A DNA stretch of 61,528 nucleotides, counting the filler, from Nemertoderma westbladi (taxonomy: Eukaryota > Animalia > Xenacoelomorpha), in NCBI GenBank assembly GCA_032718475.1. It is 3 parts of 3 records of this genome, joined end to end, with 100 filler letters (N's around TTAATTAATTAA, not from the genome) between each part and the next. Parts side by side here need not be neighbours in the genome. Positions count along the whole stretch, not along the records: positions 1 to 31,260 come from JAUCBJ010008870.1; 2 more parts are not named here. One strand, 5' to 3'. A program made the translations under genes and the position numbers. The stretch's first letter is position 1. Each line of letters opens with the position of its first letter. The notes below the pieces were generated by a model. That model had not been told where the DNA came from. It was given only the letters and a program-made list of their open reading frames with translations, and did not search any database. Positions 3,493 to 36,725 of this stretch are shown in pieces.

Positions 3493-4071
3493 TGTGACGG
3501 GATCAAGGGATCCCCACCGGTTTGTTAGACTACGCGTCACCGTGGTATTGAGAATGGGAAAAGTATGTTGTTATCTCTTTGATGCTCGGTAATTAATATC
3601 AATAAATGAATAATGAATGATAGCACAGTTGATGGATTGACAATAACAGTATTGTATACGGTAGGTAGGATATATCGGTGATGGTGACGGTGAAAGATTT
3701 CACCGGTCTGCACTCAAGCTGATGACTGAACTGGTAACTAAATGCATTGACAATATATATGTAATCATTTCTACACTACTGTGGCCTTTGTTCAGTGGAT
3801 GCTCTCCCCCGCTCCTATTGGCTGATAACCTACTTCACGCCTCTCACCTCTCTGGGAGTGCTTCCCCCCTGTTGGCCCCTGTTGGTTATTTTCCCTGTCG
3901 AGGTGGTTTGACCTCTAACCTTCCTTTGTGTGGCTTTGGGGTTTGTGTTGTCCCCGGTTATTGATTGTGATACGAGATTGGTTGTTGCCAATCTCGTACC
4001 TCCGACATATTACTGAAAATGTGCCACTTACCATTTATGAGGGTAATGCAGCAGAACTGAATCCGCTTACA
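3493..4071 (-). repeat. 3' LTR of BEL element
   Basis: TGTGACGGGATC...GAATCCGCTTACA; homologous to 10988-11574 and 37477-37997. Preceded on the minus strand by polypurine tract GGGGGGGAG (4072-4080). Confidence 0.9.
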
Positions 4072-4832
4072 CTCCCCCCCATGCTATCTTCCCGGTGAGA
4101 AGATAGCATCTCCCATAAGTGCGCTTCAATTCCGCTGGAACCCGATCTACTATCGGGTGTGGGGTGGAGTCCTTTTCTCGGAGTCGGCTTTCCGGGCCGC
4201 TCCTTCTGGGTATGATGTCACTACCCTCTCTTGGTGCAACCGCAACCTATGTTGCACCAAGACATCTGGCGTCTCGGTTCGAGACAATTGTGGACTCTTC
4301 TCACACAATTTTTGTATCTCCACTCCACTCTAAACTGACTCTAACTTCTCTAGTTCCACTCTAACTCCACTCTACTTTCGGACCTCTTTGTCCCTAACTC
4401 TGCCTCTTACTCTTCTCCTCCCCACATTTGAATTGCACCCGTACTCTCTCCACACGCGTCAACACCGCCTCTCACTATCTCCCCTGCGTTCTATACTTAA
4501 CCCTTACTCACTCTGCCCCATTCACTCCTGACGAGCCTCACCCTCCCCTTCCGTGCCGTCGCACTTAAGAAGTGTGGAGTGTGTAGTGCCATGTCTAGTC
4601 TCCCGTCCTCCTGTTATAGTCGATTGGTTCCCAGTCCCACTAGCTAATTGGAAAAGGTTACATGACTATAGTACTTACTTTGATTATATTGATTATATTG
4701 ATTATATGATTATATTTTATTGATTACTACATACGTACATACTAATTGCACTTTTATTAAATTTGCACTTAGAAGTTCGTATTACTTCGCATGTGGTGCC
4801 TTCCAGGGATCCCCACATCTCCCCTCCGAGTC

Positions 4833-5186
4833 CTACTCCGCTCCTCCCGTCTTTGGGAACCATCTCAGTTCCTTCCCTCTGTTGTCGTCCTGTCTCGGTG
4901 GTTCCCTCGGATACTTCGGTATCCCGAACTTCGCCTCGTCTCCCTTTACCACGTAGTGGAAATGCTCGAGGATCGCGTTGTCTAACGATGGCGTCCCGTA
5001 GGTCCTGACCAGCCGCCTCTCGTGCACCTCCCTGAAATGGTCCTGCAGCGCTCGCGCCTTGTGACCCTTCTCTAACCGCTCGTAGTATCCCCTCATCTTC
5101 TCCTCCGGATGTCTCTCGGTGAAATCTACTAGTATCTCCTTTCCACCCATTTCCGCCTTTCTCTTTCTGACAAGTCTCTCCGCCAT
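4833..5186 (-). CDS. Small charged ORF (117 aa) in the 3' internal region of the BEL element; function unknown
   Basis: ATG-initiated and uninterrupted, same strand as gag, located between the pol remnant and the PPT; no recognised motif. Confidence 0.4.
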   Translation of the reverse strand: MAERLVRKRKAEMGGKEILVDFTERHPEEKMRGYYERLEKGHKARALQDHFREVHERRLVRTYGTPSLDNAILEHFHYVVKGDEAKFGIPKYPREPPRQDDNRGKELRWFPKTGGAE

Positions 5187-5689
5187 TTCGAACGCTCTCT
5201 ATCGCTCACCTATAAGGTGGTGCCTTGCCAAGGCTCAATATAGGTGAGTGATGTAGTTAGGATGGTCTGTGTGGTCCGATAATGGCCTATCTCTCTCAGA
5301 GCGCTAGGTTTTCTTGCTGTATTTGCCTATTTACCCCCTAAAGTGCTAAATTTCCTTTAATTCCCTAAATCTGTAGTTACTTTTATTATGTTCTAGAATA
5401 TTTTGCCTACTGTTGCTATAATTTGTCGAATTTGATTTTTAATGTAATTTTAATTCTATAACTGTGCTATCAATACTTATGATGGATTATTTGTTCAAAT
5501 AATCCCTACGGTTCGTATACAGGATGGACTAGCTATTCCTTACTGTGCTAGTCTGCACCAGGTAACCTCCTGGCCCTGTATCAAACATTCTGACCTACTC
5601 TACGGGCTGTGCAGTACAGTAGTATGTCTCATGCGGCCTACATGGTCTGTCCTGCTGTACCCACGTGCCCCCCTCTCACTTCTTACTAC

Positions 5690-6175
5690 TAACCCTACTA
5701 ACCCTCTAACTCCACTAATTCCCTAACTCTTACTAACTCTCTAACTAATAGTACTACATACCCTCTTACTCTCTAACTAACTCTTACTAATGGAACTACG
5801 TACCCTCTTACTCTCTAACTAATGGTACTACGTACCCTCTTACTACTCTAACTAACTCTTACTAACGGTACTATGTACCGTCTTACTCTCTAACTCTTAC
5901 TAACTCTTACTAACAGTACTACGTACCCTCTTACTACTAACTCTTACTAACTCTTACTAACGGTACTACGTATCCTCTTACTGCTAACTCTTACTAACTC
6001 CACTAACGGTACTACGTACCCTCTTACTACTGACTCTTACTAACTCCACTAACGGTACTACGTACCCTCTTACTACTAACTCTTACTAACTCCACTAACG
6101 GTACTATGTACCCTCTTACTACTGACCCTTACTAACGGTACTACGTACCCTCTTACTACTAACTCTTACTAACTT
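5690..6175. repeat. Minisatellite (about 45-48-bp unit, core CTAACGGTACTACGTACCCTCTTACTA) inside the BEL 3' region
   Basis: About 9 copies of the GGTACTACGTACC core separated by CTCTTACTAA subunits. Confidence 0.9.
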
Positions 6176-6362
6176 CTATCTGCCTACTTACTTACTACTA
6201 CATACTATGTACTATGTACTATTACTTTCCTTTCTCTTTCTCATCCCTTCTCTTACTTTCTTTCTATTATTTTATTATTTTATATTATTTTTATATTTTT
6301 GTGGGAAGGGCGTCTCGCCCTCAATCCCACCCCCCTCAGTCCAACACTTGGACGACTAAACT

Positions 6363-6803
6363 CTATGGTGCCCCTTCTAGCAGGCAACACTTCCCTACAG
6401 CCCTCCAGTAGGTCTTCCTGTCTTTCGCTCCTATCTTACCCCCTATCCGCACTTCCACCGAATGGACTCTTCCGTCCTCGTCGGAGTAAGTGTCTACAAC
6501 TCTTGCTAGCCTCCACTGACTGTTGATGATTGTGTCGTCCGTGACGATCACCAAATCACCTTTCGGCACTACCCCAAGTAGTACCATTCCTCTTTTCTTC
6601 GCCCCTGCGGTGCTCGTCGCCATTGTCTGCCCTTTGCCTTGACCGAACTTAATTGGTGTTTCTTTGCATTGATCAGCTCTGTGTCCGCCCACCACACATC
6701 GATGACAGATTCCACTCTTCCTTGCATATTCTACCTGATCTTGTTTGGGCAACGCTTGCCAATATCTGCAGTTCATGGTCTGATGAAGTGCGTTCGTATG
6801 CAA
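6363..6803 (-). pseudogene. BEL gag zinc knuckle joined directly to the post-integrase C-terminal segment (deletion junction)
   Basis: CHRCVVGGHRADQC is followed about 30 aa later by GDLVIVTDD...WRLARVVDTYSDEDGRVHSVEVR (DUF5641-like BEL/Pao motif). Confidence 0.85.
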
Positions 6804-6895
6804 TTGGCATTTGTTGTTTGGATTATAGCTGTCCCTATACAGTGCGCTTCGTATCGCACTTACGTTCGTACCTAGATCCCTACTGTTCTTATTAT

Positions 6896-7813
6896 TTAGG
6901 TTCGGCCTACTGGGCGTGTTGGGGTTATGTTTGTTTGTGTTGTTATTTTGCCCCTGTCCGCTCCATGGTGTGGCCCTACCCCGGCTACATGTAGACTAGC
7001 AGTCCCCTGCATCGCCGCATATGGCAGCGATTGTCTAAGCTTTGGCAATGCGTTTGCCGTGTTATGTTCTGGTTTTGGCCTGTTATAATCGGTCTTTGGC
7101 CCTTTCCCCAGACTATCCTCGCTATAGACTGGGTCCGTGATCAACTCAGCTTCATAGTTGAGGAAGTTCGACATTTCCTCTAGGCCCGGTTCCGCACCCT
7201 TCTTCTCCCGGGTGGAGAAGGCGATCTTTCTCCATTTACTGCGCAGCCAGATCAGCAGTGCCTGCGCTATCGTGGTGATGTTATTAGATGCGTTGAGTTC
7301 GTATGGTGCGTCTAGTGTTTTCATCACAATTAACGCCTTCTCGACTTTGTTCGCAAACATCTTTATGCTAACGGGGTTATCCTGTAGGCCACCCGATGTT
7401 ATACCCCTCAGGGTCTGCCGGATGATCTTGGCCGGGTGCCCATATTCCCTGTCCAGGGCCCGCCATGCAGTTGTGAAGCCGCCCTCGATGCCCTGATACT
7501 GCCTCACGATGTCGTACGCTGGGCCTCCTGTATATACCTGTAGATATTTTAGGCACTCTGCCTGCGTCAGGTTCTTGGTTAATATCTCGTTGCTGTACAT
7601 GCGCCGAAATTGCAGGTATTCTTCCGGCCTACTTCCGTCGAATTTAAATGGCTCGACTGGTGGTAACTCGATTCTGGTCTTAAGTGCATCGATTAATGTA
7701 GCCATTCCCATCGCCTGTGCTTCCAATGGGTTCGAAGGATGCTGTACAGATTCTCCCATTGGGTGCGGTCCGCCCGTCTGGCCTGTTGCCTTCCGTTGCG
7801 TCGGATATACCAT
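6896..7813 (-). pseudogene. BEL/Pao gag core (DUF1759-like)
   Basis: LPPVEPFKFDGS..EYLQF...LKYLQVYTGGPA...AWRALDREYG...WLRSKW pattern typical of BEL gag. Confidence 0.85.
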
Positions 7814-7925
7814 TGGGGGTAACGGCCCCCTCCATATTTACGTGTCGCAAGATCTGTTCTTCTCCAGGGGGTTCGATGTTCTTATTTCTGTTTGAGTATA
7901 TTGTTGATATTGTAATGGGGGAATG

Positions 7926-10882
7926 TCACCCTGTCCCCCCCCCCACCAGTGGTATGTTTGGTACTGGGGTTGATGTTAATATATTGGGGCCCATACACCT
8001 ATCCGCAATGACTCTCCCTTCCCCTGGATATATGTTATGTCCCTGCATGTTATAGTCATACTGCTGTGCTGGTACCGGTATAGGCCTATCCACTTCTGGC
8101 CTACCTACCGGTATATACTCCGCGACTTCTGGGTTTAATCCCGTAGTTCGCGCTACCCTATCGCCTACACTATCTCTCCCAGCATGGCCTATAGTATGTG
8201 CAGTAAGGCCTACAGTATGTCCTGCAGTCTGTATGTGTCCCTCCGGACCGAAGTTTAACCTTCTCGAATAATCCAAGAAGTCCTCCCCGCGACTACCATA
8301 CCCTCGATCGGCGGCTATATCTCATCGGGAAGTTTCTCTTCGATCCCCTCTCCTATTCTCGTCCTCGTACCGGTACGCCCTGTACCCCTCTCTCGGCGTA
8401 TAGTACACCTCGCCAGGTTGCGTCTCTCCAGGACGACGGCAATCTCCCGGAGTTCGACCCCACTGACTCTCCAACTCCATCTCTACTACCGACGGCTCGC
8501 TATCCGTCCTCGCTCTCCGGTCGCTCCTAGCAACACTTCTTCGACTCTCTTCTCTTCTTCTCGCTTCAGTGTAGCGTCCCCGCTCGTGAGATCTCTCATC
8601 TACCTCCCGGTTAAACTCCACTGTTCTTCTTCCCTCTTCTGACTGGGCTCGACATCTCTTCGCTCGCCCTCTCGCGACGCCAACCTCCCTCTCTCTAGCC
8701 GGTCGCACGCCGCTGGGGATATTCGTAATCCCCCAACTATTCTCTGTCATCGGGTGCTGCGGTTCACCTAATTCGCCCCGCGCATTATCCGCTGACCCCT
8801 GTGTGACACTCTCTGCCCCCCCTCTCGCCGCTAATCTCTCATTGTGGGGCTCCTGTAGCCCCCCCCCCCCCCCCACTCGCCTCCTATCACTTCACTATCT
8901 CTCGTTTCACCTCTAAGCCCCTCTCTAGTCGACGCACTATCTCTACTTCGGCTGGGTCTATTCACCCCCGCCTCTCCCTCTATCACTATGTGGCCTGGCA
9001 GGCTCCCATTGGGTCGACTCACCCCCGCTACTCCCTGCGTATTAACTATATGGCCTTCCAGGCTCCCGTCGGGGTCTCTCACCCCCGCTACCCCCTGCGT
9101 ACTGATTATGTGGCCTGGCAGGCTCTCGTTGGCCGGGCCACCTACATCTGCCGCGTTTATATTAATAGCACCATTATTAATATTATTTTCTAAATTATTT
9201 AAATTATTAGAGTTATTCTGTACTGAATTCGGATTATTATTTAAATTATTTTGTATATTTGGGTTAGAATCGGGATTATTTTGTACGTTTGAATTAAAGT
9301 TATTATTTAGATTATTTTGCATATTTAAATTTAAATTATTTGAATTACTTTGTATATTCGAATCTAGATTATTATTTGAATTACTTTCTATATTTAAATT
9401 AGGATCGTTCGGATATAAATTATTGTTACCGGGCAAAATATTATTTCCTGCAATGAAAGTTTGATTAGGGTTGTCTACTATGGTACTATTAATATTAACG
9501 TCTTCTAATGTATTGTTATTACCCCCCCCCCCCCCCCCCACCCGTATGGTTACACCAGTCTTGGGTCTGTCGTCCGGTCCCTGTAAGTGGGGTATTAACA
9601 AACGTTTCCATAACCTCTGGCTCCTCGTAAATACTACCCGAGCCAGCCTCACTCTCTGATAGTCCCAACTGCGCCAGTTCTAGTCGGCGCTTCTGTTTGG
9701 CCTGATATTGCATAAGCCCCCTCAACCGGGCAAGCATATCATCCCGCATGCGCTTCCCTGCTCCCTCTCTCTCTCTATCCTCTCGCAAACTCTGGTTCGC
9801 TAACTCTGTTTCTCTCGCCACCCGCTCACTACGCTCGCTCTCTACTCTCTCTGCCCTCGCTTCCCACTCCTTGTGTTCATTCTCTACTCTTATTTTTCAC
9901 TCTTTACGCTCCTCTTTCTCCCTCTCTTCTTGCTCCTTACGTTCGTTCTCTACCCTTATTTATCGCTCTTTGCGCTCTTCTTTCTCCCTCTCTTCTTGCT
10001 CTCTACAGTTCCTGGCCACCCTCTCGGCCCTCTCTCTGCACTCCCTCGCTAACTCTCTCTCTTTCTCCAACAGCGCAGTTCCCTCATCCAACTGCCTCTC
10101 TAACTCTTTCTGGTCTAGCGCCACCATGTCTAATTGACACGCCAGATCTATCTCTAACACCCTTCTTGCTTTCGTGGAGGATGTAGCGGACTTATCGGTC
10201 GCGACGGACTCCCGTCGCCTCCCTGTCCTACTAACTTTCCCCCGCTTTCTGGGGTTTTCGCTAACCGACGAGACCGAATCCTCGGGGTTAACCTCAGGTT
10301 CGCCCTCGTGCGGATCTGCCCAACCCACTAACTTAATTCCCCTAGCATCCACTAAAGATGGCCCTACGTACACTACTTGGGGCTCCATAATCCCGCATCG
10401 CCACAGTTCGAATAGTTCGGTGGCGACCCCCCTCGCTCTCTCACTCGCCAGTTCTCCCTGCCCGAAACGAACTAGGTATCTGAAATGTTTATTCGACTCA
10501 CCTAGTCGCTGGCTCAACTTCCCCTGGTTTACCTTTGCTCCCTCTCTGGCCTCCTTGAGCTGTTTCTTCGTGGCGTTGTAGGCCCGTCGAAGCCGATCGC
10601 TGGTTCCGACATCCTCGTCGCCGACATCTCCTCCTCCTCTCCTGGTTCGGCGTCGTACCGGCGGCCCCACTGTCGCCGTTTTGGTGGGCCGTCCATCGCC
10701 CTCGGCCTGTGGCTGGCCGGTGACTTCGGTACTTCGACCGCCGTCGTGCATCGACTCGTCCCCTCCTTGTAGTAGACAGCCGCCCTCCGCTTGGGCTGCC
10801 AGATCGTCTGTCGTTGGCGAATCCGGCGTCGCAGGTCAGTACCGTCGCGTTGCGGCCTCGCGGATCGTTTCGTTGGTATCAT
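7926..10882 (-). pseudogene. Long low-complexity N-terminal extension of BEL gag (E/R coiled coil, Asn-rich tract, 60-bp repeats), broken by frameshifts
   Basis: Consecutive minus-strand ORFs 9960-10751, 9519-9821, 8831-9652, 8322-8876 and 7926-8276. Frame changes occur near poly-C runs (about 8858-8874 and 9522-9539). Homologous to 36895-37476. Confidence 0.6.
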
Positions 10883-10987
10883 CCGGGGTCCGCGGCAGTG
10901 TCCTCTCTCCTTCCGATAGTTGGGGTTGTCCTGTGCTCATTCTCCCCTCTGGCAGTCACAGTTTGTGGGTTGTTGGGAGTTTTTCAC

Positions 10988-11574
10988 TGTGACGGGATCA
11001 AGGGATCCCGACCGGTTTGTCGAACTACGCGTCACCGTGATATTGAGAATAATGGGAAAAGTTTGTTGTTATCTCTTTGATCCTTTAGTAATTAATATCA
11101 ATGAAATGAATAGTCAATGATAGCACAGTTGTGATGGATAATATATATGTATTGTATACCTGTAGGTAGGATATCGGTGATGGTGATGGTGATGGTGAAA
11201 AACATCACCGGTCTGCACTGAACTGAATGACTGAGTAAACTGAACAACTGACCGGTAATAGGATAATATATGTATTCATTCCTACATTACTTTGGCCTTT
11301 GTCCAGTGGATACGTTTCCCCTCTCCCATTGGTTGATGACCTACTTCACGCCTCTCACCTCTGTGGGAGTGCTTCCCCCCCGCTGTTGGTTATCTGCCCT
11401 CTCGAGGTGGTTTGACCTCTAACCTCCCTTTGTGTGGCTTTTGGGGTGTATGTTATCCCGTTATTGGGTGTGATACGAGATTGGTTGTTATCAATCTCGT
11501 ATCTCCAATATTGCTGAAAAAGGCGCCACTTCCCAACTTTATGGGGGTAGTGAGTAGAATTGAATCCGCTCACA
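10988..11574 (-). repeat. 5' LTR of BEL element
   Basis: TGTGACGGGATCAAGGGATCCC...GAATCCGCTCACA; clearly homologous to, but diverged from, 3493-4071. Confidence 0.9.
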
Positions 11575-11668
11575 TATACTTATATTCCGTTTATGGTGTA
11601 AAATAAATTTTACATGAGTCTCATAAAGTAAAATCGTAGTAATAAAAAGTTACCAGAAAAATGAATGT

Positions 11669-12990
11669 TTATTTCCGGGCCCTTTTCTTCTTAGAAATCC
11701 GTTTATGATGCTTCAACGGTGGGGAACCATTATTGGGTGTGGGAGCAAGGGACCCTTGGACTTGAATTCCTTCAGTAGCTGATGGATGGAGTTCCAATGA
11801 GTCAGGGGGAACTTCAACAGTCCGAATAGTTAGACCACCAGTAGATGTTCCCGGTTTGGGGTCGCCAACCGAAGCTGAAGGAGGAAGTACGTAATGTTTC
11901 ACACCCTTGCAAAGTATCTTGGCTGGAGAAGACTGAGATGAGAGGGAAAGTGCAGATAGTACCGACTGTTTAAGATGGCAGCGGTGATTTGTCCCTTAAG
12001 AGTTTGGGAGGAAGTCGTAATATCTCCTCGGTTGGAAATGTACCTCATGGGCTTAAGCCCTTTTATCGACAAGGCGCAAGGTATGTCTAAGGTAGGTGGT
12101 GTGGTTGGAGGTCTTGGGTTCGCAGTGAGGAATTCATTACCGAGATCGGGGTCTTTTCTCACGTAGTCTAAATGAAATTATATGTGCTGAGATCTTCCGG
12201 ATTCATTCAGCGGAGAAATGTACGCATGTAATGAACATTAACGACCTCGGAGAAAGAGAGCAGTAGTTGATGGTCAGGAAGGTTGGAATGTTGCACTTCA
12301 ATCGCGAAAGCGTATGGGTTAAAGGCAAAGACCCCGAAATATAAATGGGAGGACTCGTACTGCAATCAGGTGATTTGATGTAAGTCCGCCGAATGTTCCC
12401 ATAACCTTATATATTTAATAAGAGATGTCTCGTCGTCCCTTGGGTGGTGTCGAAGGACCAAGAAGTAGGATAATGTCCCTTTAACATGCACTTATCGCAC
12501 TGTTCTGAGAACTGTGGGCAATTAAAGAAAGTATGGTTCCCAAACAGTTGACAATACAGGCAGTGGAGGGGCTCATCAGAGCACTTCACGTACAGCTGAC
12601 AGATCTCACCGGAAGGGGGAGTTCTATGAGCACGGGAGCCGCACTGGAGGCTATCGAAGGTGGAGTATTCTAGATAAGTAGAAAGTTGTTTATCTGGTGT
12701 CTGTACAACGGACACTCAATAACCCGATTTGATGAGAGGGTGTTACAGAACGGTGGAATGTAAGTTCTCAATACACACGTCCCTGAATATAGCGAAACCT
12801 TTCTCGAAAGCAGTTGAATTTACCACTGGGTCACGGAATTGACTATCGATTCGAATGAAGTGAGATAGGAACCTTCGGAAGCACTCAAAACTTTAGAATT
12901 TCCCAACGTGAAGAAACCACGCCCCTGGGCCCAGGTGAGGATCATATGGGTGTCGGCGAAAGGATATGGGATGTCTAATTTTGATTTCAT
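11669..12990 (-). pseudogene. Decayed paralogue of the exonuclease/CCHC zinc-knuckle gene at 37999-40795
   Basis: Minus-strand translations IPYPFADTHMILTWAQGRGFF, FECFRRFL...DSQFRD, GFAIFRDVCIENLHS, CLYCQLFGNHTFFNCPQFSEQCDKCMLKGH, RKDPDLGNEF, PGTSTGG, LHPS and a basic C-terminus match the + strand copy in order; stops, frameshifts and a deletion are present. Confidence 0.85.
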
Positions 12991-13708: not shown

Positions 13709-15793
13709 TTAATGAAAATATCTAATTGTTGCTGTATCATATGTGTCCGGCGTGTACGTGTACTTGTTTGATCCAGATATTTTTTCAGTTGCTGTCTGAA
13801 ATATGGAAGATACATTTTCTTTGGGAAGTGACATAAGCAAAATCATCGACTCAAATTTACTCAGATTCTTTTCACTTAGGTTGTGTATGTCTCGAAGTTT
13901 TAGTTCAGGAAACTCAGAATAATCCATAAAGATCTTATTAAACTTATGTAAATAATCGAGTCGGTTTAACAGAGCCAGTAATGGTATCCATATCAGAATG
14001 ATGAAAAGTAGACAACTCCCAAAAAGAACTGTCCATGTTGGTAAATCATCCTCAAGTTCATATTTGTGGGTTTTAATTGCGTCGAGTGGCTGGTACTTGA
14101 ATGTCATCTCAGAAAATAATTTAAGGGTCTGCAGTGTTAAAATGATCGGAGCAAAATACCTCCAAATGATCATGAAAAATCCACTCGCCTTTTTACCAGT
14201 CATAGACTCGAAGTCAAACATTAATCGACTGAATACGCCTGGAGTCAGTGTTATAACATATGCAATTACCATGTTAATAATTGTTCCCGAAATATTATTA
14301 ACAAAGTAATCTCCCACATTGCTAAGGTATTTACCAATTCTCAAGGTATATATTAAACTAATAGACCAGAAAATGAAACATATCACCATCAACGTCAAAT
14401 TGAATGATAACTTTGATCGTGTTTCTCGAATTAAACACGCAATTGTATACATAGTTGTAAGTATACTATCAGTTCCTAGGCACACAAGTATAGTAAAGTA
14501 GGCTGCTGCCCAATATTGAGATAAATTCATCATTTCAAACATATCAGAAAGGTGCATGAAAGCAATGGTGTCTCCAGCTCCACTGCCATTAGTATAACTA
14601 CTTAGTAAATATGTTGCGTTTGTAGAGCATTGATGAGTGACTCCATCTGACTTTGAATTTAATTCAATGCATTCTTGGGCATCCAGATTGGCCTTCCGCC
14701 CCAGATTGGCGTAAATAGTTAACGCGCCTAAGACGGACATTAGGTAATCCGCAGTTGCCACAATTTTTGCATCTTTATAAAAATCATTTGTTCTTGGTAA
14801 GTAACTAGCCAAACAAAGATGAGCTCCTAAACCAATTTTGGAACTAACTATCGATCGCGTCAAAGCTGTCTTCCATCCCTGTGGGTCGAAAAATTTGCTG
14901 AAGTCAGGTTTAAGTAAATACTTGACACCAGATATCCCACCTTTAGAGGTAAATGCGTGTAGGAATAGAAATGTGGTCATTAAAACCCCATATGGAACTG
15001 TAATCCGTAAAACCTTTGCTGTTGAATGAATACCGCCAATCAAACAGATGTAAAATATAATCCATGCCACAGTACATGCAGCTAAGATTTTGTACGCAAA
15101 AATTGGTTGTGAAAAATCATTGAAATTTCCGGCCATTTGAAGTGAGGTCGTGTAATAAAAATACTCGCTGGCATTTATCCTTTCCACACATTCCGCCACC
15201 GGGGTTTCATTTACATGCCACATAGACTCTAGTATTGTCTCGCTCTCGGTAGGGCAGATTCGCCAAGGGAGCGGGTCTTGTAATGACATAAACAGATAGT
15301 AGAAACAATATGAAACATTAACGCTGTACATCATAACCCCTAAACTGCATCCCATTAGTGTGGCTACGCCAATTCCAGTGAAGCTTTTGTTAATCTGATA
15401 CCACGAAAAGACGTGACTCCTCCGAAATCGCTGACCGATTCCCATTTCGATGGCCATTATCGGCATCCCGACAATGCAATGTGCGACAGCGAATTGGATG
15501 AGAAAAATCAATCCACCGTTTTTCTCGACTATGTATGGGAAGTCCTTAAAGTTTGATGTGCCAACCGCGCACGCAATTGGTAATAGTAAATATTCCCACT
15601 TTGATGTAAACAGATTTCTGGCTCTGGTCTTGTGGGAATCATCCAAAGCAAACTCGTATATTCTACGGTTAGTTTTTTGTTCAAACGTCTCACCAGCCTC
15701 GTCGGATCCGCCATCTCTAAATATATGAAACTTAGCCGGGGTTATTACATTAAGTTTAGTTTCACTAAGCTTTGGTGTGAGTTTTTGAAACAT
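13709..15793 (-). CDS. SLC6 / neurotransmitter:sodium symporter (NSS) family transporter, intronless and divergent
   Basis: About 694-aa ORF with roughly 12 hydrophobic segments. Motifs AVGTSN..FPY..KNGGLIFLI, GMPIMAIEMGIGQ, FTGIG, LPW..C, GVKYLLKP, LASY, LGTDS and WRYFAP. First ATG at 15793 (ORF track starts at GTG 15802). Confidence 0.92.
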   Translation of the reverse strand: MFQKLTPKLSETKLNVITPAKFHIFRDGGSDEAGETFEQKTNRRIYEFALDDSHKTRARNLFTSKWEYLLLPIACAVGTSNFKDFPYIVEKNGGLIFLIQFAVAHCIVGMPIMAIEMGIGQRFRRSHVFSWYQINKSFTGIGVATLMGCSLGVMMYSVNVSYCFYYLFMSLQDPLPWRICPTESETILESMWHVNETPVAECVERINASEYFYYTTSLQMAGNFNDFSQPIFAYKILAACTVAWIIFYICLIGGIHSTAKVLRITVPYGVLMTTFLFLHAFTSKGGISGVKYLLKPDFSKFFDPQGWKTALTRSIVSSKIGLGAHLCLASYLPRTNDFYKDAKIVATADYLMSVLGALTIYANLGRKANLDAQECIELNSKSDGVTHQCSTNATYLLSSYTNGSGAGDTIAFMHLSDMFEMMNLSQYWAAAYFTILVCLGTDSILTTMYTIACLIRETRSKLSFNLTLMVICFIFWSISLIYTLRIGKYLSNVGDYFVNNISGTIINMVIAYVITLTPGVFSRLMFDFESMTGKKASGFFMIIWRYFAPIILTLQTLKLFSEMTFKYQPLDAIKTHKYELEDDLPTWTVLFGSCLLFIILIWIPLLALLNRLDYLHKFNKIFMDYSEFPELKLRDIHNLSEKNLSKFESMILLMSLPKENVSSIFQTATEKISGSNKYTYTPDTYDTATIRYFH

Positions 15794-16424
15794 CTTAAAC
15801 ACAAATATTAATGTTCTTTATTTCCAAAAGCATTTCTGTGAAGTATCTTCATTTTTTTTCAGTTCTTCAGTTCTGTTCATCTTCAGTTTTTTTTAACTCC
15901 GATCTATGGGGAACAGTTAAAAATAGTTTGTTTCTTTAACTGCGATCTCATTGAGAGTACGAAAATAAGATGAGATTAAATCCAACTAAGATTAAAGTTT
16001 AAGTGTTTTGCAGTTCAAAATTAAAACAGTCTGTTCTAGCTAGAACGACGTTGAGTAGCGGATATATTATAATAGGCAGGTTTTTTTTATTAAAAATTGA
16101 AAAACATGTGAAAAAAATGTGAAAAAAATGTGGTTTGTTCTAGAACAATTTTAAATAATCATAGACATTAGTAGTACCTGTATACCCTGGGTATCAAAAT
16201 TTTTATTTTTTTTATGTGTTGTATGTGTGTTATAAGTTTTTTTATTGTAGTATTTCTTTTTCTTTCTGTTCTAGAACATTTTCTAGTTATCTTTCTAGAA
16301 TCATTATGTTAGCTAGTAACTAATAGGCCAACTATCTAATTACTACAACCAGAATTGAAATGCTGCTTTGCAGCTGCAATATATATATATTACATATTAA
16401 GAATGTTGTGCTGGCTTATAAAGA

Positions 16425-18191: not shown

Positions 18192-18906
18192 TGAATTTCA
18201 CCTACTGAGGGATGTAGCTATTATTTTTTATTATGGTAGCTATTGTTTTTAAAGGTAGCTAGTGATCTTAAAATGACAAAAGAAAATTTGTAGTGCCCAT
18301 TTTATTTAGACAATTTCCATATCATCAATATGACTAATCTATTTGACATCTATATGAGTGATAAAAAATAAATAAATCTGGAAATTTTTTGGATGCTCTG
18401 GAAAAGATCAAGAAAATAATATTATTAAACACGATAAACTAGTCCTTTAAGCAAACGGTACCGGTAGTGTTCTGACTGAGTATAATAAAAAATGTATATA
18501 TAACTTACATTTCGGAATAGTAAAAACTGTATTTAGACATCTCTGCCTATATTTTGTATAAAAAACTAGCTAGTGAATTACCTACCGACTGGTGAATTAG
18601 CTACGAGTGAACTAGCTACTTTGACTATCAAATAACAATTCCTAGCTAACCATGACTCATAAATTATTCCAGGCAAATATATAATTGAGAATTAAATTAT
18701 ATCTTACATTTTTTTTACAAGCTAATAAATCGTACTAGCTAATAGTACTAATATTATATTTTAGTTACTATATCATTTTAGGCTATATTTTTTATGGGTG
18801 GTACTATACTAGTACCAATAATATTAGCACTAGCTACTATATACTTTGTGAGTGTATGTGATATGGCAGAACGTTAATCAAAAATAATCTTACCAAAATA
18901 TTTGAT

Positions 18907-21900
18907 TAGTGGGGAGGAGTACGGAACTAGTGGGGAGGAGTACGGAACTAGTGGGGAGGAGTACAGAACTAGTGGGGAGAAATACGGAACTAGTGGGGAG
19001 GAGTACGACCTATTGGGGAGGAGTACGGAACTAGTCCGGAGGAGTGCGGAACTAGTGTGGAAGAGTACGGAACTAGTGGGGAGGAGTACGGAACTAGTGG
19101 GGAGGAGAACGGAACTAGTGGGGAGGAGAACGGAACTAGTGGGGAGGAGTACGGAACTAGTGGGGAGGAGTACTGAACTAGTGGGGAGAAATACGGAACT
19201 AGTGGGGAGGAGTACGACCTATTGGGGAGGAGTACGGAACTAGTCCGGAGGAGTGCGGAACTAGTGTGGAAGAGTACGGAACTAGTGGGGAGGAGTACGG
19301 AACTAGTGGGGAGGAGAACGGAACTAGTGGGGAGGAGTACGGAACTAGTGGAGAGGAGTACGGAACTAGTGGGGAGGACTACGGACTATTGGGGAGGAGT
19401 ACGGAACTAGTCCGGAGGAGTGCGGAACTAGTGTGGAAGAGTACGGAACTAGTGGGGAGGAGTACGGAACTAGTGGGGAGGAGAACGGAACTAGTGGGGA
19501 GGAGAACGGAACTAGTGGGGAGGAGTACGGAACTAGTGGGGAGGAGTACTGAACTAGTGGGGAGAAATACGGAACTAGTGGGGAGGAGTACGACCTATTG
19601 GGGAGGAGTACGGAACTAGTCCGGAGGAGTGCGGAACTAGTGTGGAAGAGTACGGAACTAGTGGGGAGGAGTACGGAACTAGTGGGGAGGAGAACGGAAC
19701 TAGTGGGGAGGAGAACGGAACTAGTGGGGAGGAGTACGGAACTAGTGGGGAGGAGTACTGAACTAGTGGGGAGAAATACGGAACTAGTGGGGAGGAGTAC
19801 GACCTATTGGGGAGGAGTACGGAACTAGTCCGGAGGAGTGCGGAACTAGTGTGGAAGAGTACGGAACTAGTGGGGAGGAGTACGGAACTAGTGGGGAGGA
19901 GAACGGAACTAGTGGGGAGGACTACGGACTATTGGGGAGGAGTACGGAACTAGTGTGGAAGAGTACGGAACTAGTGGGGAGGAGTACGGAACTAGTGGGG
20001 AGGAGAACGGAACTAGTGGGGAGGACTACGGACTATTGGGGAGGAGCACGGAACTAGTGGGGAGGAGTACGGGACTAGTGGTGAGGAGCACGGAACTAGT
20101 GGGGAGGACTACGATCAATCAATCAATCAATCAATCAATCAAATTATATTTATTTAGCGCTAAAAACTTAAATTTAAAATTATACTCTAAGCGCTGCAAC
20201 TTTCGAGTTAACAATGACATTACAAGAAGTAGTTCACAATTAATTAATCATAATAATTAAAATACTTAAAACAAGGAAGGCAAATTAAAATAGTTCGGTA
20301 AAAAATAAGTAATATCTATTTACATCATTATGTGGAAGCAAGGCAGTTCGAAGTAAAAATAATGAAGTTAATTGAAAGTACTAAAACGTAGCAAGGCGAA
20401 TTAAGAAATTAAGATACTTCGGTAAAAATAACGTATTTAATTAAAAGTAAGTTAATTAAGATGGGGTTGGAAACGCTTTATCGAATAAATGAGTTTTGAG
20501 GTTCTTCTTAAATATTTCAATAGATGTTGCGGCACGTATTTTAGTTGGTAATTTATTCCACAATGTAGGTCCCGATACTGCGAAGGCGCGCTCACCGAGC
20601 GTTCTGTGTTTATACGTAGGAATTTCCAGCGTCACAGTATTTCCAGAACGGCTGTTATATGGATTCGTGTATATGGTGGTTAATTCTTGGATATAATCTG
20701 GGGATTGACCATTAACAGACTTGTATACTAGCAACAGTATTTTAAACTCAATGCGTTGTCTTACAGGCAACCAGTGAAGCCGTTTTAGAATCGGTGTGAT
20801 ATGATCATACTTTTGTATACGGGTCACGAGACGGGCAGCCATATTCTGCAATCGTTGTAATCGATCTAATTGATATTCAGCGATGCCATAGTAAAGTGAA
20901 TTACAATAATCCAAACGACTTGATATCAAGGAATGAACTAGCTTTTCTGCTGCCGATTGTGTAAGATATGGCCGTATTTTCCGAAGATTTCTTAAGTGAT
21001 ATGATACACCACTAGATGTTCGACTAACGAAAGTTTCCATTGACATTGTTGAGTCAAAATAGGCACCCAAATTTCGAACATTTTTCATTGGTTCAGTACT
21101 ATGATTGCCGACTTTGATTGCGTTGATATTAACTTTGGCTAACTGCTGTTTGGTCCCAATTATTAGAAACTCAGTTTTGTCATCGTTTATTTTTAGCCAG
21201 TTATTTATAAGCCAACATCGTATCTCAATTATACATTGTTCGACAGCTGTTAGAGCCGCCTGTTCGGAGAAATCACAGTTCGGTTTGAAAGACAGGTATA
21301 ATTGTTTGTCGTCAGCAAATCCATGAACGTTGGGCAAATGTTTAGCGACAATCTCGTATACGACAGTAACGTAAATGATGAACAAAATACACCCCAAACA
21401 AGATCCTTGTGGAAAACCGAAACGTAACTGAACTTTCCGAGAGAAAAGCCCATCAACCTTAACACGCATACACCTATCACCGAGAAATGAAGTGAACCAC
21501 TTGTGCGCGACATCATCGATTTTAAACTTTGACCGCAATGTGTTTAACAGTACTGTGCGATCAACTGTATCGAATGCAGCGCTCAAATCGAGTAGTACAA
21601 ATAGGGTAACCTTCTGTTTATCCATTGCCATTAGGATGTCGGAATGCACACGAGTTAGGGTTGTTTCAGTACTGTGGTAAGGTCTGTACGCTGATTGGTT
21701 GTATGGAAGTTGGGGCGTGATATGAGGCATGGTATCTTCGGAAACCGCACGTTCTGTTAGTTTAGACAAAAATGATAGACCACTAACGGGTCGGAAGTTA
21801 GGGAATAGTTTCGGATCGAGTTTGAGTTTCTTAACTAGTGGGGAGGAGAACGGAACTAGTGGGGAGGAGTACGGAACTAGTGGGGAGGAGTACTGAACTA

Positions 21901-24900
21901 GTGGGGAGAAATACGGAACTAATGGGGAGGAGTACGACCTATTGGGGAGGAGTACGGAACTAGTCCGGAGGAGTGCGGAACTAGTGTGGAAGAGTACGGA
22001 ACTAGTGGGGAGGAGTACGGAACTAGTGGGGAGGAGAACGGAACTAGTGGGGAGGAGTACGGAACTAGTGGAGAGGAGTACGGAACTAGTGGGGAGGACT
22101 ACGGACTATTGGGGAGGAGTACGGAACTAGTGGGGAGGAGCACGGAACTAGTGGGGAGGAGTACGGGACTAGTGGTGAGGAGCACGGAACTAGTGGGGAG
22201 GACTACGGACTATTGGGGAGGAGTACGGAACTAGTGGGGAGGAGTACGGACTATTGGGGAGGAGTACGGACTATTGGGGAGGAGTACGGAACTAGTGGGG
22301 AGGAGTACGGAACTAGTGGGGAGGAGTACGGACTATTGGGGAGGAGTACGGAACTAGTGTGAAGGAGTACGGAACTAGTGGGTAGGAGTACGGAAATAGT
22401 GGGGAGGAGTACGGAACTAGTGGGGAGGAGTACGGAACTAGTGGGGAGGAGTACGGACTATTGGGGAGGAGTACTGAACTAGTGGGTAGGAGTACGGAAA
22501 TAGTGGGGAGGAGTACGGAACTAGTGGGGAGGAGTACGGAAATAGTGGGGAGGAGTACGGAACTAGTGGGGAGGAGTACGGAACTAGTGGGGAGGAGTAC
22601 GGACTATTGGGGAGGAGTACTGAACTAGTGGGTAGGAGTACTGAACTAGTGGGGAGAAATACGGAACTAGTGGGGAGGAGTACGACCTATTGGGGAGGAG
22701 TACGGAACTAGTCCGGAGGAGTGCGGAACTAGTGGGGAGGAGTACGGGACTAGTGGTGAGGAGCACGGAACTAGTGGGGAGGACTACGGACTATTGGGGA
22801 GGAGTACGGAACTAGTGGGGAGGAGTACGGACTATTGGGGAGGAGTACGGAACTAGTGGGGAGGAGTACGGAACTAGTGGGTAGGAGTACGGAACTAGTA
22901 GGTAGGAGTACGGAACTAGTGGGGAGGAGTACGGAACTAGTGGGGAGGAGTACGGAACTAGTGGGTAGGAGTACGGAACTAGTGGGTAGGAGTACGGAAC
23001 TAGTGGGGAGGAGTACGGACCTAGTGGGGAGGAGTACGGACTATTGGGGAGGAGTACGGTACTAGTGTGAAGGAGTACGGAACTAGTGGGTATGAGTACG
23101 GAAATAGTGGGGAGGAGTACGGAACTAGTGGGGAGGAGTACGGAACTAGTGGGGAGGAGTACGGAAATAGTGGGGAGGAGTACGGAACTATTGGGGAGGA
23201 GTACGGAAATAGTGGGGAGGAGTACGGAACTAGTGGGGAGGAGTACGGAACTAGTGGGTAGGAGTACGGAACTAGTGGGTAGGAGTACGGAACTAGTGGG
23301 GAGGAGTACGGACCTAGTGGGGAGGAGTACGGAACTAGTGGGTAGGAGTACGGAAATAGTGGGGAGGAGTACGGAACTAGTGGGGAGGAGTACGGAACTA
23401 GTGGGGAGGAGTACGGAAATAGTGGGGAGGAGTACGGAACTAGTGGGGAGGAGTACGGAACTAGTGGGTAGGAGTACGGAACTAGTGGGTAGGAGTACGG
23501 AACTAGTGGGGAGGAGTACGGACCTAGTGGGGAGGAGTACAGACTATTGGGGAGGAGTACGGAACTAGTGTGAAGGAGTACGGAACTAGTGGGTAGGAGT
23601 ACGGAAATAGTGGGGAGGAGTACGGAACTAGTGGGGAGGAGTACGGAACTAGTGGGGAGGAGTACGGAAATAGTGGGGAGGAGTACGGAACTATTGGGGA
23701 GGAGTACGGAACTAGTGGGGAGGAGTACGGACTATTGGGGAGGAGTACTGAACTAGTGGGTAGGAGTACGGAAATAGTGGGGAGGAGTACGGAACTAGTG
23801 GGGAGGAGTACGGACTATTGGGGAGGAGTACGGAACTAGTGTGAAGGAGTACGGAACTAGTGGGTAGGAGTACGGAAATAGTGGGGAGGAGTACGGAACT
23901 AGTGGGGAGGAGTACGGAACTAGTGGGGAGGAGTACGGACTATTGGGGAGGAGTACGGAACTAGTGTGAAGGAGTACGGAACTAGTGGGTAGGAGTACGG
24001 AAATAGTGGGTAGGAGTACGGAATTAGTGGGTAGGAGTACGGAACTAGTGGGGAGGAGTACGGAACTATTGGGGAGGAGTACGGAACTAGTGTGAAGGAG
24101 TACGGAACTAGTGGGTAGGAGTACGGAACTAGTGGGTAGGAGTACGGAACTAGTGGGGAGGAGTACAGAACTAGTGGGGAGGAGTACGGACTATTGGGGA
24201 GGAGTACGGAACTAGTGTGAAGGAGTACGGAACTAGTGGGTAGGAGTACGGAACTAGTGGGGAGGAGTACGGACTATTGGGGAGGAGTACGGAACTAGTG
24301 GGGAGGAGTACGGACTATTGGGGAGGAGTACGGAACTAGTGTGAAGGAGTACGGAACTAGTGGGTAGGAGTACGGAACTAGTGTGAAGGAGTACGGAACT
24401 AGTGGGTAGGAGTACGGAACTAGTGGGTAGGAGTACGGAACTAGTGGGGAGGAGTACGGAACTAGTGGGGAGGAGTACGGAACTAGTGGGGAGGAGTACG
24501 GAACTAGTGGGTAGGAGTACGGAACTAGTGGGGAGGAGTACGGAACTAGTGGGGAGGAGTACGGACTATTGGGGAGGAGTACGGAACTAGTGTGAAGGAG
24601 TACGGAACTAGTGGGTAGGAGTGCGGAAATAGTGGGTAGGAGTACGAAACTAGTGGGTAGGAGTACGGAACTAGTAGGGAGGAGTACGGAACTAGTGGGG
24701 AGGAGTACGGACTATTGGGGAGGAGTACGGAACTAGTGTGAAGGAGTACGGAACTAGTGGGTAGGAGTACGGAACTAGTGGGGAGGAGTACGGACTATTG
24801 GGGAGGAGTACGGAACTAGTGGGGAGGAGTACGGACTATTGGGGAGGAGTACGGAACTAGTGTGAAGGAGTACGGAACTAGTGGGTAGGAGTACGGAACT

Positions 24901-27900
24901 AGTGTGAAGGAGTACGGAACTAGTGGGTAGGAGTACGGAACTAGTGGGGAGTAGTACGGAACTAGTGGGGAGGAGTACGGAACTAGTGGGTAGGAGTACG
25001 GAAATAGTGGGGAGGAGTACGGAACTAGTGGGGAGGAGTACGGAACTAGTGGGGAGGAGTACGGAACTAGTGGGAAGGAGTACGGAACTAGTGGGTAGGA
25101 GTACGGAACTAGTGGGTAGGAGTACGGGACTAGTGGGGAGGAGTACGGAACTAGTGGGGAGGAGTACGGAACTAGTGGGGAGGAGTACGGAACTAGTGGG
25201 TAGGAGTACGGAACTAGTGGGGAGGAGTACGGAACTAGTGGGGAGGAGTACGGACTATTGGGGAGGAGTACGGAACTAGTGTGAAGGAGTACGGAACTAG
25301 TGGGTAGCAGTACGGAGATAGTGGGGAGGAGTACGGAACTAGTGGGGAGGAGTACGGAACTAGTGGGGAGGAGTACGGACTATTGAGGAGGAGTACTGAA
25401 CTAGTGGGTAGGAGTACGGAAATAGTGGGGAGGAGTACGGAACTAGTGGGGAGGAGTACGGAAATAGTGGGGAGGAGTACGGAACTAGTGGGGAGGAGTA
25501 CGGAACTAGTGGGGAGGAGTACGGACTATTGGGGAGGAGTACGGAACTAGTGGGGAGGAGTACGGAACTAGTGTGAAGGAGTACGGAACTAGTGGGTAGG
25601 AGTACGGAAATAGTGGGTAGGAGTACGGAACTAGTGGGTAGGAGTACGGAACTAGTGTGAAGGAGTACGGAACTAGTGGGTAGGAGTACGGAACTAGTGG
25701 GGAGGAGTACGGAACTAGTGGGGAGGAGTACGGAACTAGTGGGTAGGAGTACGGAACTAGTGGGGAGGAGTACGGAACTAGTGGGGAGGAGTACAGAACT
25801 AGTGGGGAGGAGTACGGAACTAGTGGGGAGGAATACGGAACTAGTGATGCGGAGTACGGACTATTGGGGAGGAGTACGTAACTAGTGGGTAGGAGTACGG
25901 AACTAGTGGGTAGGAGTACGGAACTAGTGGGGAGGAGTACGGACCTAGTGGGGAGGAGTACGGACTATTGGGGAGGAGTACGGAACTAGTGGGTAGGAGT
26001 ACGGAACTAGTGGGTAGGAGTACGGAACTAGTGGGTAGGAGTACGGAACTAGTGGGGAGGAGTACAGAACTAGTGGGGAGGAGTACGGACTATTGGTGAG
26101 GAGTACGGAACTAGTGGGTAGGAGTACGGAACTAGTGGGTAGGAGTACGGAACTAGTGGGTAGGAGTACGGAACTAGTGGGTAGGAGTACGGAACTAGTG
26201 GGGAGGAGTAGGCTACGGAACTAGTGGGGAGGAGTACGGAACTAATGGGGAGGACTACGGACTATTGGGGAGGAGTACGGAACTAGTGGGTAGGAGTACG
26301 GAACTAGTGGGGAGGAGTACGGAACTAGTGGGGAGGAGTACAGAACTAGTGGGGAGGAGTACGGACTATTGGGGAGGAGTACGGAACTAGTGGGTAGGAG
26401 TACGGAACTAGTGGGTAGGAGTACGGAACTAGTGGGTAGGAGTACGGAACTACTGGGTAGGAGTACGGAACTAGTGGGGAGGAGTACGGAACTAGTGGGG
26501 AGGAGTACGGAACTAGTGGGGAGGAGTACGGACTATTGGGGAGGAGTACGGAACTAGTGTGAAGGAGTACGGAACTAGTGGGTAGGAGTACGGAAATAGT
26601 GGGGAGGAGTACGGAACTAGTGGGGAGGAGTACGTAACTAGTGGGTAGGAGTACGGAACTAGTGGGGAGGAGTACGGAACTAGTGGGGAGGAGTACGGAC
26701 TATTGGGGAGGAGTAGGGAACTAGTGTGAAGGAGTACGGAACTAGTGGGTAGGAGTACGGAAATAGTGGGGAAGAGTACGGAACTAGTGGGGAGGAGTAC
26801 GGAACTAGTGGGGAGGAGTACGGACTATTGGGGAGGAGTACTGAACTAGTGGGTAGGAGTACGGAAATAGTGTGAAGGAGTACGGAACTAGTGGGTAGGA
26901 GTACGGAAATAGTGGGGAGGAGTACGGAACTAGTGGGGAGGAGTACGGGACTAGTGGGGAGGAGTACGGAACTAGTGGGGAGGAGTACGGAACTAGTGGG
27001 GAGGAGTACGGACTATTGGGGAGGAGTACTGAACTAGTGGGTAGGAGTACGGAAATAGTGGGGAGGAGTACGGAACTAGTGGGTAGGAGTACGGAAATAG
27101 TGGGGAGAAATACGGAACTAGTGGGGAGGAGTACGACCTATTGGGGAGGAGTAGGGAACTAGTCCGGAGGAGTACGGAACTAGTGGGGAGGAGTACGGGA
27201 CTAGTGGTGAGGAGCACGGAACTAGTGGGGAGGAGTACGGAACTAGTGGGGAGGAGTACGGAACTAGTGGGGAGGAGTACGGAAATAGAGGGGAGGAGTA
27301 CGGAACTAGTGGGGAGGAGTACGGACTATTGGGGAGGAGTACGGAACTAGTGGGGAGGAGTACGGAACTAGTGGTGAGGAGCACGGAACTAATGGGGAGG
27401 ACTACGGACTATTGGGGAGGAGTACGGAACTAGTGGGGAGGAGTACGGAACTAGTGGGGAGGAGTACGGAACTAGTGGGGAGGAGTACGGAACTAGTGGG
27501 TAGGAGTACGGAACTAGTGGGGAGGAGTACGGAAATAGAGGGGAGGAGTACGGAACTAGTGGGGATGAGTACGGACTATTGGGGAGGAGTACGGACTATT
27601 GGGGAGGAGTACGGAACTAGTGGGGAGGAGTACGGAACTAGTGGGTAGGAGTACGGAACTAGTGGTGAGGAGCACGGAACTAATGGGGAGGACTACGGAC
27701 TATTGGGGAGGAGTACGGAACTAGTGGGGAGGAGTACGGAACTAGTGGGGAGGAGTACGGAACTAGTGGGTAGGAGTACGGAACTAGTGGGGAGGAGTAC
27801 GGAACTAGTGGGGAGGAGTACGGAACTAGTGGTGAGGAGCACGGAACTAATGGGGAGGAGTACGGAACTAGTGGGGAGGAGTACGGAACTGGTGGGGAGG

Positions 27901-28577
27901 AGTACGGAACTAGTGGGGAGGAGTACGGAACTGGTGGGGAGGAGTACGGAACTAGTGGGGAGGAGTACGGAACTAGTGGGTAGGAGTACGGAACTAGTGG
28001 GTAGGAGTACGGAACTAGTGGGGAGGAGTACGGACTATTGGGGAGGAGTACGGAACTAGTGGGGAGGAGTACGGAACTAGTGGGGAGGAGTACGGACTAG
28101 TGGGGAGGAGTACGGAACTAGTGGGTAGGAGTACGGAAATAGTGGGGAGGAGTACGGAACTAGTGGGGAGGAGTACGGAACTAGTGGGGAGGAGTACGGA
28201 CTATTGGGGAGGAGTACTGAACTAGTGGGTAGGAGTACGGAAATAGTGGGGAGGAGTACGGAACTAGTGGGTAGGAGTACGGAACTAGTGGGGAGGAGTA
28301 CGGAACTAGTGGGTAGGAGTACGGAACTAGTGGGGAGGAGTACGGACTATTGGGGAGGAGTACATAACTAGTGGGGATGAGTACGGAACTAGTGGGGAGG
28401 AGTACGGACTATTGGGGAGGAGTACGAAACTAGTTGGGAGGAGTACATAACTAGTGGGGAGGAGTACGGAACTAGTGGGTAGGAGTACGGAACTAGTGGG
28501 GAGGAGTACGGAACTAGTGGGGAGGAGTACGGAACTAGTGGGGAGGAGTACGGAACTAGTGTGGAGGACTACGGAAA
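18907..28577. repeat. G-rich 21-bp satellite (GGAACTAGTGGGGAGGAGTAC, with a 20-bp variant GGACTATTGGGGAGGAGTAC), about 8 kb, interrupted by a LINE
   Basis: Hundreds of tandem monomers at 18907-20112 and 21834-28577; variant monomers recur in fixed order (higher-order blocks). Confidence 0.98.
20113..21833 (-). mobile_element. 5'-truncated L2-clade LINE with intact RT C-terminal ORF and (TTGA)n tail
   Basis: ORF 20456-21769: QSAYR..HSTET, LLDLSAAFDTVD, GFPQGS, FADD, KTEF, RNLG, SRLDYCNSL, HITPILKRLHWLPV. The 3' end has AATAAA then (TTGA)n at 20113-20141. Confidence 0.93.
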
Positions 28578-28922
28578 TACATATTCTTCAACATGTATTT
28601 CATAAAACATTACATTGATTTCAGGTCTAATTGGGTTCATTTTTTTGGCTAGAGTTCCGTATAGAGCAACAATTTTTTAAAACATATATCATTGTTACTA
28701 TGGTAACATTGAAGAGTTCTAGAACAATAGAAAAGTATCATATAATATTCTAGAACATAAATATAATAAAAAATATAATGTTCTAGAACATACAGCGAGT
28801 CTTCTATTAATTAGAAAATAGCTAGTAAATTTAAAAAAAATTATTTTTAAATAAATTTCTGAATACATTTAAATTAATCTTGATTAAAGAATGTTTTTGT
28901 ATAACGATGTAGGCCTAACTTA

Positions 28923-31360: not shown

Positions 31361-31657
31361 GAAGGAGTGACTACTGTCCGTGCCTGTCTATTATCAATTG
31401 TCTGGCCGTTATAAGTACCGCACTGCAATACATACTAATACTAGTTACCGGTATCAAAACCTCCACCAGTAGGCCTATCTACCATGGCCTACTTTATACA
31501 CAATATACTAATATACCAACTCCTCTTTTTCGAGATCCAATATTAATAGTATAAGTAAATGGTTAAGTAATCTTCCAGTTTATATAAAATTCATTATGGA
31601 TCTTCCTGAGTTAAAATCTTAGCAGTGTTAAAATATAATCAGAAAATTAAAACATCT

Positions 31658-36478: not shown

Positions 36479-36707
36479 TGTTCAGCTTTCACCTGATAAT
36501 GGTGGACAAGAGCTATCCAGCCCTAGTTGCCTAGCTGATATTTAGTACCGGTATTACACTACCAGTACTTCAGTCAGTCAGTACTTGCAGTCCTGCGCAC
36601 TGCAGGTTCGGTAAGTTGACGCCGTATAGCATAAATAATAGAGTGGTCCTTCTGTCTCACATAAAACTAGAACACACTGTTCATAATATAGTAGTTTTAT
36701 CAGTAAG

Positions 36708-36725
36708 ATCCTACTCGCAGCGCCA
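36708..36725 (-). promoter_or_regulatory. Primer-binding site (tRNA-Ser-like) of the Gypsy element
   Basis: + strand ATCCTACTCGCAGCGCCA looks like a tRNA 3' end with CCA and lies directly next to the LTR. The Ser assignment is from remembered tRNA ends and was not searched. Confidence 0.8.

Follow-up and report, generated by a model that had tools for sequence, protein, structure and literature searches.

Do an exonuclease-like frame and a neighbouring frame that bears zinc knuckles represent two genes or one, and what carries them? The question is raised by a stretch of Nemertoderma westbladi DNA (61,528 nt with filler, hereafter the window) in which the pair occurs twice, as copy B on the plus strand, in two frames that overlap by 11 nt, and as a decayed copy A on the minus strand. 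A preliminary description had argued from copy A that the two halves are one coding unit, belonging to an old family that diverged under protein-level constraint and whose individual copies decayed later. The window is mobile-element-rich animal DNA, with BEL/Pao, Gypsy and LINE pieces and an SLC6 transporter. Positions below count along it (Table 1).

Table 1. Coordinates of the two gene copies and of the adjoining LTRs and elements.
Feature	Position	Strand	Remarks
Copy A	11669-12975	-	exonuclease-knuckle pseudogene, truncated at the 5′ end and with an internal deletion; 5 stops, 3 frameshifts
Copy A, exonuclease-half remnant	12910-12975	-	IPYPF.DT motif, equivalent to the RNase D-like P.P.fDTQ
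Copy A, deletion junction	12902-12909	-	8 nt, against 286 nt in copy B
Copy A, conserved post-exonuclease segment FECFRRFL...NLHS	12752-12901	-	
Copy A, CCHC knuckle region and conserved module WE.sADLH...Y.GV.AF.PY	12171-12640	-	boundaries approximate
Copy A, T-rich 3′ UTR	11575-11668	-	collinear with 40796-40872
LTR TGT...ACA, 587 nt	10988-11574	-	94 nt after copy A stop; 5′ LTR of BEL/Pao element
Internally deleted BEL/Pao element	3493-11574	-	Gag DUF1759 6896-7837; DUF5641 6363-6995; 3′ LTR 3493-4071
5′ LTR of second BEL/Pao-type element	37476-37997	-	antisense at copy B 5′ end; upstream sequence cut off
Copy B ORF1	37996-39429	+	477 aa; unknown N-terminal part and RNase D-like exonuclease core
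Copy B break	39420-39424	+	family contigs end at 39420, restart at 39424
Copy B ORF2	39419-40795	+	458 aa, +1 frame; conserved segment, knuckles, conserved module, PGTSTGG, basic tail
Copy B, three CCHC-type knuckles	39866-40063	+	within ORF2
LTR-like repeat TGT...ACA, 420 nt	40873-41292	+	77 nt after copy B stop; likely its 3′ LTR

The motifs that had been attributed to copy A are all present, at the described places on the minus strand and in the described order: IPYPFADT..I..WAQGRGFF (12972-12910), FECFRRFL..DSQFRD, GFAIFRDVCIENLHS and the knuckles, followed by DPDLGNEF, PGTSTGG (11854-11834), LHPS and a basic tail that runs to the stop at 11669. The extent proposed for this copy, 11669-12990, holds for 11669-12975, as homology begins at about 12975 and the first ~15 nt, the ATG at 12990 included, overlap a neighbouring repeat. 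Stops interrupt the copy at 12895, 12745, 12718, 12368 and 12209 and frameshifts near 12450, 12166 and 11966; the frame also changes at the deleted junction, leaving the two halves in different frames. ExoI and ExoII, with the ExoII Asp, are gone from the 5′ end, and the putative ExoIII is gone with the internal deletion. Copy A itself is an ordinary pseudogene, and its divergence from copy B indicates that their subfamilies split long ago.

Translated comparison relates both halves of copy A to copy B. Using tblastn, ORF1 matched it at E=1e-5 (15 of 30 residues identical) and ORF2 at E=2e-41 in four pieces; the best scores were 38.5 bits for the exonuclease half and 87.0 bits for the knuckle half, compared with maxima of 26.2 and 24.6 bits, respectively, in 200 triplet shuffles. 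The segment that follows the exonuclease is 62% identical in amino acids to 39425-39652 over 60 codons. At the DNA level, similarity appears only in pieces of 27-102 nt (best E ~1e-6), bearing out the earlier remark that it is clearer in protein than in DNA. A frameshift-aware alignment gave 42% amino-acid identity over 395 codon pairs, with nucleotide identities of 0.54, 0.62 and 0.33 at codon positions 1, 2 and 3. Synonymous sites are saturated (pS 0.82, pN 0.41; an alignment of this kind maximises protein similarity and so biases towards pN < pS), and 104 of 165 identical degenerate residues are encoded by different codons. Neutral decay that had brought third positions down to 33% identity would have been unable to preserve 42% identity in the protein. 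This supports the picture of an old family under protein-level constraint with later decay of its copies. Judged from these substitution patterns, both halves and the segment between them have been under purifying selection.

Copy A cannot prove a single frame, because its junction is deleted and its halves lie in different frames. We therefore turn to copy B and its relatives in public contigs, of which 15,767, 5,715, 305 and 80 matched copy B in four runs from four studies; the exonuclease-knuckle gene is highly repeated, with many copies in the animal's genome. Loose contig ends follow 39420 (9 in X1, 3 in X3 and 2 in X4), and loose starts precede 39424 (4 in X4). A listing of 30 pieces, out of a set with 1,845 more, includes 5 whose match stops at 39420 and 5 whose match starts at 39424, and no piece in it spans the site. 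The gap is bridged by a single X5 contig (n=1, depth 6, with a second organism label, B), in which 62 letters replace 3. Each of 39420 and 39424 is the last base of a codon in its own frame, so that a stretch of 62 letters has a length that would bring ORF1 and ORF2 into register. The breaks and the in-register bridge suggest that a small deletion private to copy B separated its two frames.

Variation within the family points the same way. The stretch 39430-39652, previously taken as apparently intergenic, belongs to the ORF2 open frame, which runs from 39419 and has its first ATG only at 39707, ~95 codons after the start of the constrained segment. Of the single-site family variants listed, 11 of 16 in ORF1 and 15 of 20 in ORF2 are synonymous (36 of the 40 listed fall inside the frames and were classified, from 730 in total). 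Within 39424-39652, 27 of 35 are synonymous and 24 of 35 are third-position changes (p=2e-5, with one third as the expectation; 35 of the 40 listed were classified, from 100 in total), the rows being a best-supported subset, several from one contig and not independent, so that p-values are indicative. None of the listed variants in ORF1, ORF2 or 39424-39652 creates a stop, and the other two frames lack such a pattern. Separately, summed contig depth over the basic tail and 3′ UTR (40625-40866) exceeds that of the remaining gene several- to tens-fold in X1, X3 and X4, which suggests many short derivatives in which the 3′ end of the element alone is kept.

The exonuclease and knuckle frames could instead be expressed apart, as two genes or through a programmed +1 frameshift. 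The overlap of the copy B frames would fit such an arrangement, as would the differing frames of the copy A halves, and no copy with one uninterrupted frame was seen among the two window copies and the short public contigs. It is nonetheless improbable, given that family contigs of four runs break exactly at 39420/39424, that the length of the bridging contig restores register and that ~95 codons upstream of the first ORF2 ATG are under coding constraint. An intron was also considered as the cause of the stretch missing from copy A. GT...AG pairs exist at 39164-39429, yet we rejected it because all three listed family variants in 39297-39378 fall at ORF1 third positions (hand count). As judged from sequence, intact copies very probably carry the exonuclease and the knuckles in one uninterrupted frame. 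The claim of one coding unit is thus upheld by the family junction contigs and by the codon-position bias before the ORF2 ATG; copy A, from which it was first drawn, shows adjacency and constraint only. The fused protein would be ~930 aa, counted from the first ATG of ORF1 at 38053; its actual start is possibly upstream of this, in the part interrupted by an LTR.

What kind of nuclease might the first half be? When 297 targets were searched with a profile of 20 diverse RNase D proteins, ORF1 came out on top at E=5.4e-5, the runner-up having E=1, and the alignment covered the ExoII Asp (D354, near 39055) and the P.P.fDTQ motif (PYPFVDTQ at 39091). Because the profile aligns this motif in ORF1, the IPYPF.DT of copy A can be read as the same RNase D motif. 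hhalign of ORF1 against RNase D scored 39.1, compared with a maximum of 25.1 in 60 shuffles, and the only NCBIfam matches were two RNase D models (E=0.0043 for the top model, TIGR01388, at 16 bits against a cut-off of 299 bits, and E=0.017). An Atlas search returned PF01612 clusters in 25 of 30 hits at 0.91, which we take as a lead only. Pfam named no domain in ORF1, hence no exonuclease, and ORF1 was also missed by a profile made from 40 short PF01612 proteins of bacterial origin. Protein searches yielded no relatives of ORF1 among 969 candidates near its length or 2,361 longer ones; metagenome and viral contigs likewise yielded none, and ORF1 matched no PDB sequence. AlphaFold reached pLDDT 30 from the single sequence and 57 on the RNase D alignment; the RNase D top match of the latter model is circular, that alignment having been its input, and was not counted as evidence.

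These comparisons make an RNase D-like fold of ORF1 highly probable. With bacterial RNase D (TIGR01388) and eukaryotic Rrp6/EXOSC10 it shares the ExoII region and the P.P.fDTQ motif. Unlike them, it has knuckles added, its ExoI and ExoIII registers are candidates only, and no HRDC was detected after the exonuclease: the first 75 residues of ORF2 scored 12.3 against the RNase D profile, with a shuffle median of 12.6, and a remote HRDC is conceivable. By eye, ExoI may be YDNEG (residue 252, 38749) and ExoIII YTIFE (residue 462, 39379), the latter with Glu for Asp, but both pieces score like shuffles, 19-20 of 25 of which reach the same score.

Whether the predicted exonuclease is catalytically active is accordingly finely balanced, and we put activity slightly below even. 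A somewhat less probable, still quite possible reading is a single fused gene whose dead exonuclease fold binds RNA or works as a decoy to counter piRNA-type silencing, in the manner of EXD1, Egalitarian and Maelstrom. Significance is limited to the ExoII/PFDTQ region, the candidate ExoIII has the wrong acid, and in both the hhalign and the MAFFT alignment ExoI falls on a degenerate ETL ~40 residues downstream of YDNEG, which would mean a dead enzyme; EXD1 and Maelstrom are described as inactive DEDD derivatives in the passages available from PMC5408684. On the other hand, ORF1 retains the ExoII Asp, and its VTYDNE resembles the VTVDTE of RNase D by eye and was aligned with it in one profile, not significantly.

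For the knuckle half, Pfam gave zinc-knuckle matches only, all sub-threshold, and a search of 1.84 billion representatives gave two weak matches. One of these, P0001, is a MORN-repeat protein whose match lay in an unrelated repeat, and it was discarded. The other, P0002 (633 aa, an NCBI/JGI singleton cluster), has the same triple-knuckle and helical module as ORF2 (E=4.5e-4 in the library, 2e-11 pairwise), differing in that it bears the module twice. Its N-terminal region looks exonuclease-like by eye and was recognised by no profile tried, NCBIfam included; among 4,297 candidates its only relative was itself. P0002 hints that the exonuclease-knuckle architecture is present in other animals.

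We next consider what carries the gene. The 3′ ends of copies A and B are collinear through the stop, the UTR and the start of the LTR (46, compared with a maximum of 40 in 300 shuffles). Both LTR starts share an 11-mer that has no third occurrence in the window and lies 122 and 111 nt past the two stops, and all four LTR starts of this kind have TGT...CCC.ATA.A. The likeness is confined to the LTR start, since the score of the whole LTR after copy B against BEL LTRs was reached by 251 of 300 shuffles. This repeat is preceded by a short G-rich tract, two X4 contigs have unrelated loose ends exactly at its first position (40873), and contig depth falls, rather than rises, along it. Behind copy A, no clear polypurine tract was found in the 3′ UTR. 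From its position and the shared 11-mer, the LTR at 10988-11574 probably serves copy A as its 3′ LTR as well. In our reading, both copies are element ends bounded by LTRs, and copy A shares its LTR, in tandem, with a neighbouring element.

The BEL/Pao element on the other side of that LTR (3493-11574) has a G-rich tract before its 3′ LTR. Its LTRs are 82% identical, and its flanks form no target-site duplication; recombination between relatives would fit both, and the element is probably a recombinant. Canonical TGG primer-binding sites were absent after both BEL 5′ LTRs of the window. The element's Gag contains a long low-complexity region, and its 3′ LTR lies within an apparent LINE reverse-transcriptase fragment (by eye). 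At the ORF3 position, 4717-5205 (minus strand) holds two short open frames of 121 and 162 aa, without an NCBIfam match for either or a Pfam match for the 121-aa frame, and unlike the exonuclease gene; they are possibly another accessory gene. BEL LTRs also lie antisense inside or beside the exonuclease-knuckle gene, at 37476-37997 and, at another ORF1 position, at a joint in an X1 contig (37997-38617). An apparent inversion that might have indicated long terminal inverted repeats proved to be two BEL LTRs in the same orientation.

That the carrier is an LTR retrotransposon is, on this evidence, a confident though not firm conclusion; that it belongs to BEL/Pao is one towards which we lean slightly. 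The LTR adjoining copy A forms the 5′ end of an element with the DUF1759 Gag and DUF5641 of BEL/Pao, whereas tblastn found no exonuclease gene before that element's own 3′ LTR in the window, and no copy linked to gag or pol was seen in the window or the short public contigs. An unlikely alternative is that the gene is cargo of another, 5′-truncating retroelement, Penelope/Terminon-like or LINE-like, next to which BEL LTRs inserted later. The truncated 5′ end of copy A, the rise in depth towards the 3′ end of ORF2 and the antisense BEL LTR at the 5′ end of copy B, together with the X1 joint, would all suit it, and Terminons bear DEDDy ORFs according to the available text of PMC6431247. Such cargo does not account for the collinearity of the two copies into the LTR start, with its 11-mer, or for the sharp left boundary of the TGT...ACA repeat after copy B, and no poly(A) or telomeric tail was seen. 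Far less probable still is that a host gene family expanded independently of mobile elements: the purifying selection seen in each half and the twofold module of the lone P0002 are compatible with this, while the missing introns, the breakage of both window copies, the thousands of variant contigs and the LTR context all speak against it. Taken as a whole, we consider it probable that the gene encodes a ~930-aa exonuclease-knuckle protein in the env position of an LTR retrotransposon, as the final gene ahead of the 3′ LTR, the element likely being of the BEL/Pao type.

The closest known system is in bdelloid rotifers. As described in the passages available from PMC5408684, RNase D-like DEDDy ORF3s occur in the LTR retrotransposons Juno and Vesta and in Athena/Terminon; their activity is undemonstrated, they show no clear departure from neutrality, and a role in 3′-end processing is proposed, with only a Cys-His-Cys motif mentioned for the Vesta2 and Vesta5 ORFs. 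Available parts of PMC5718144, PMC6431247 and PMC6338049 repeat this account. Copies A and B resemble Juno and Vesta in having an RNase D-like exonuclease gene last before the LTR, and differ in a likely fusion that adds three CCHC knuckles and a basic tail to the exonuclease. The carrier here may be BEL/Pao, in contrast to the gypsy-type Juno and Vesta; the rotifer elements are low-copy, whereas this family is high-copy, with purifying selection between and within subfamilies. These comparisons are with the published description of the bdelloid ORF3s rather than with their sequences. Among titles and abstract openings, the literature held neither a fused exonuclease-knuckle form nor an exonuclease-bearing BEL element. 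The gene is thus likely a variant of the bdelloid DEDDy ORF3, which the partial sources describe only from rotifers, and there without knuckles.

Conservation past synonymous saturation in a family of very high copy number suggests that the protein probably does something for the element. In one model, to which we would give a little less than an even chance, the knuckles would bind single-stranded RNA, leaving the exonuclease to trim the 3′ ends of element RNA or of replication intermediates. Rrp6 works together with Air proteins, which bear knuckles, and would offer an analogy for such trimming; the basic tail might serve nuclear import. The protein would act in trans as an accessory RNA-binding exonuclease, and because of this copies A and B would be free to decay. 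A more speculative and rather unlikely version is a high-copy BEL/Pao lineage that carries, in place of an envelope gene, a fusion akin to 'Rrp6 plus Air', in which a bacterial RNase D-type exonuclease is joined to three knuckles and a nuclear-type basic tail, and that uses this enzyme to destroy or trim the host's small silencing RNAs. Such a counter-silencing nuclease, if real, would account for both the family's success and its long purifying selection. The family offers a testable case for an enzymatic role of ORF3, in RNA 3′-end processing or counter-silencing, and enzymatic ORF3s may extend to BEL/Pao.

Several other features of the window are recorded here. About 700 nt upstream of copy A and on the same strand, 13709-15817 (minus) is an intronless 702-aa SLC6/SNF transporter frame (PF00209, E=4e-78). 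A Gypsy-type element at 31361-36894 (minus), with an uninterrupted 1,607-aa frame (RT, RNase H and integrase) and a 158-nt terminal repeat pair at 99% identity, is nested in a second BEL 5′ end and is probably a recent insertion. Large tandem-repeat arrays at 18874-28579, 43918-44746 and 56586-57803 give rise to many spurious long frames, and one array is interrupted by a LINE RT fragment (~20456-21830). Finally, 46237-48594 (plus) contains a 785-aa frame that looks transposase-like by eye, with no Pfam match, and 50522-54274 (minus) a two-frame LINE whose 962-aa frame appears, also by eye, to be endonuclease/RT-like.
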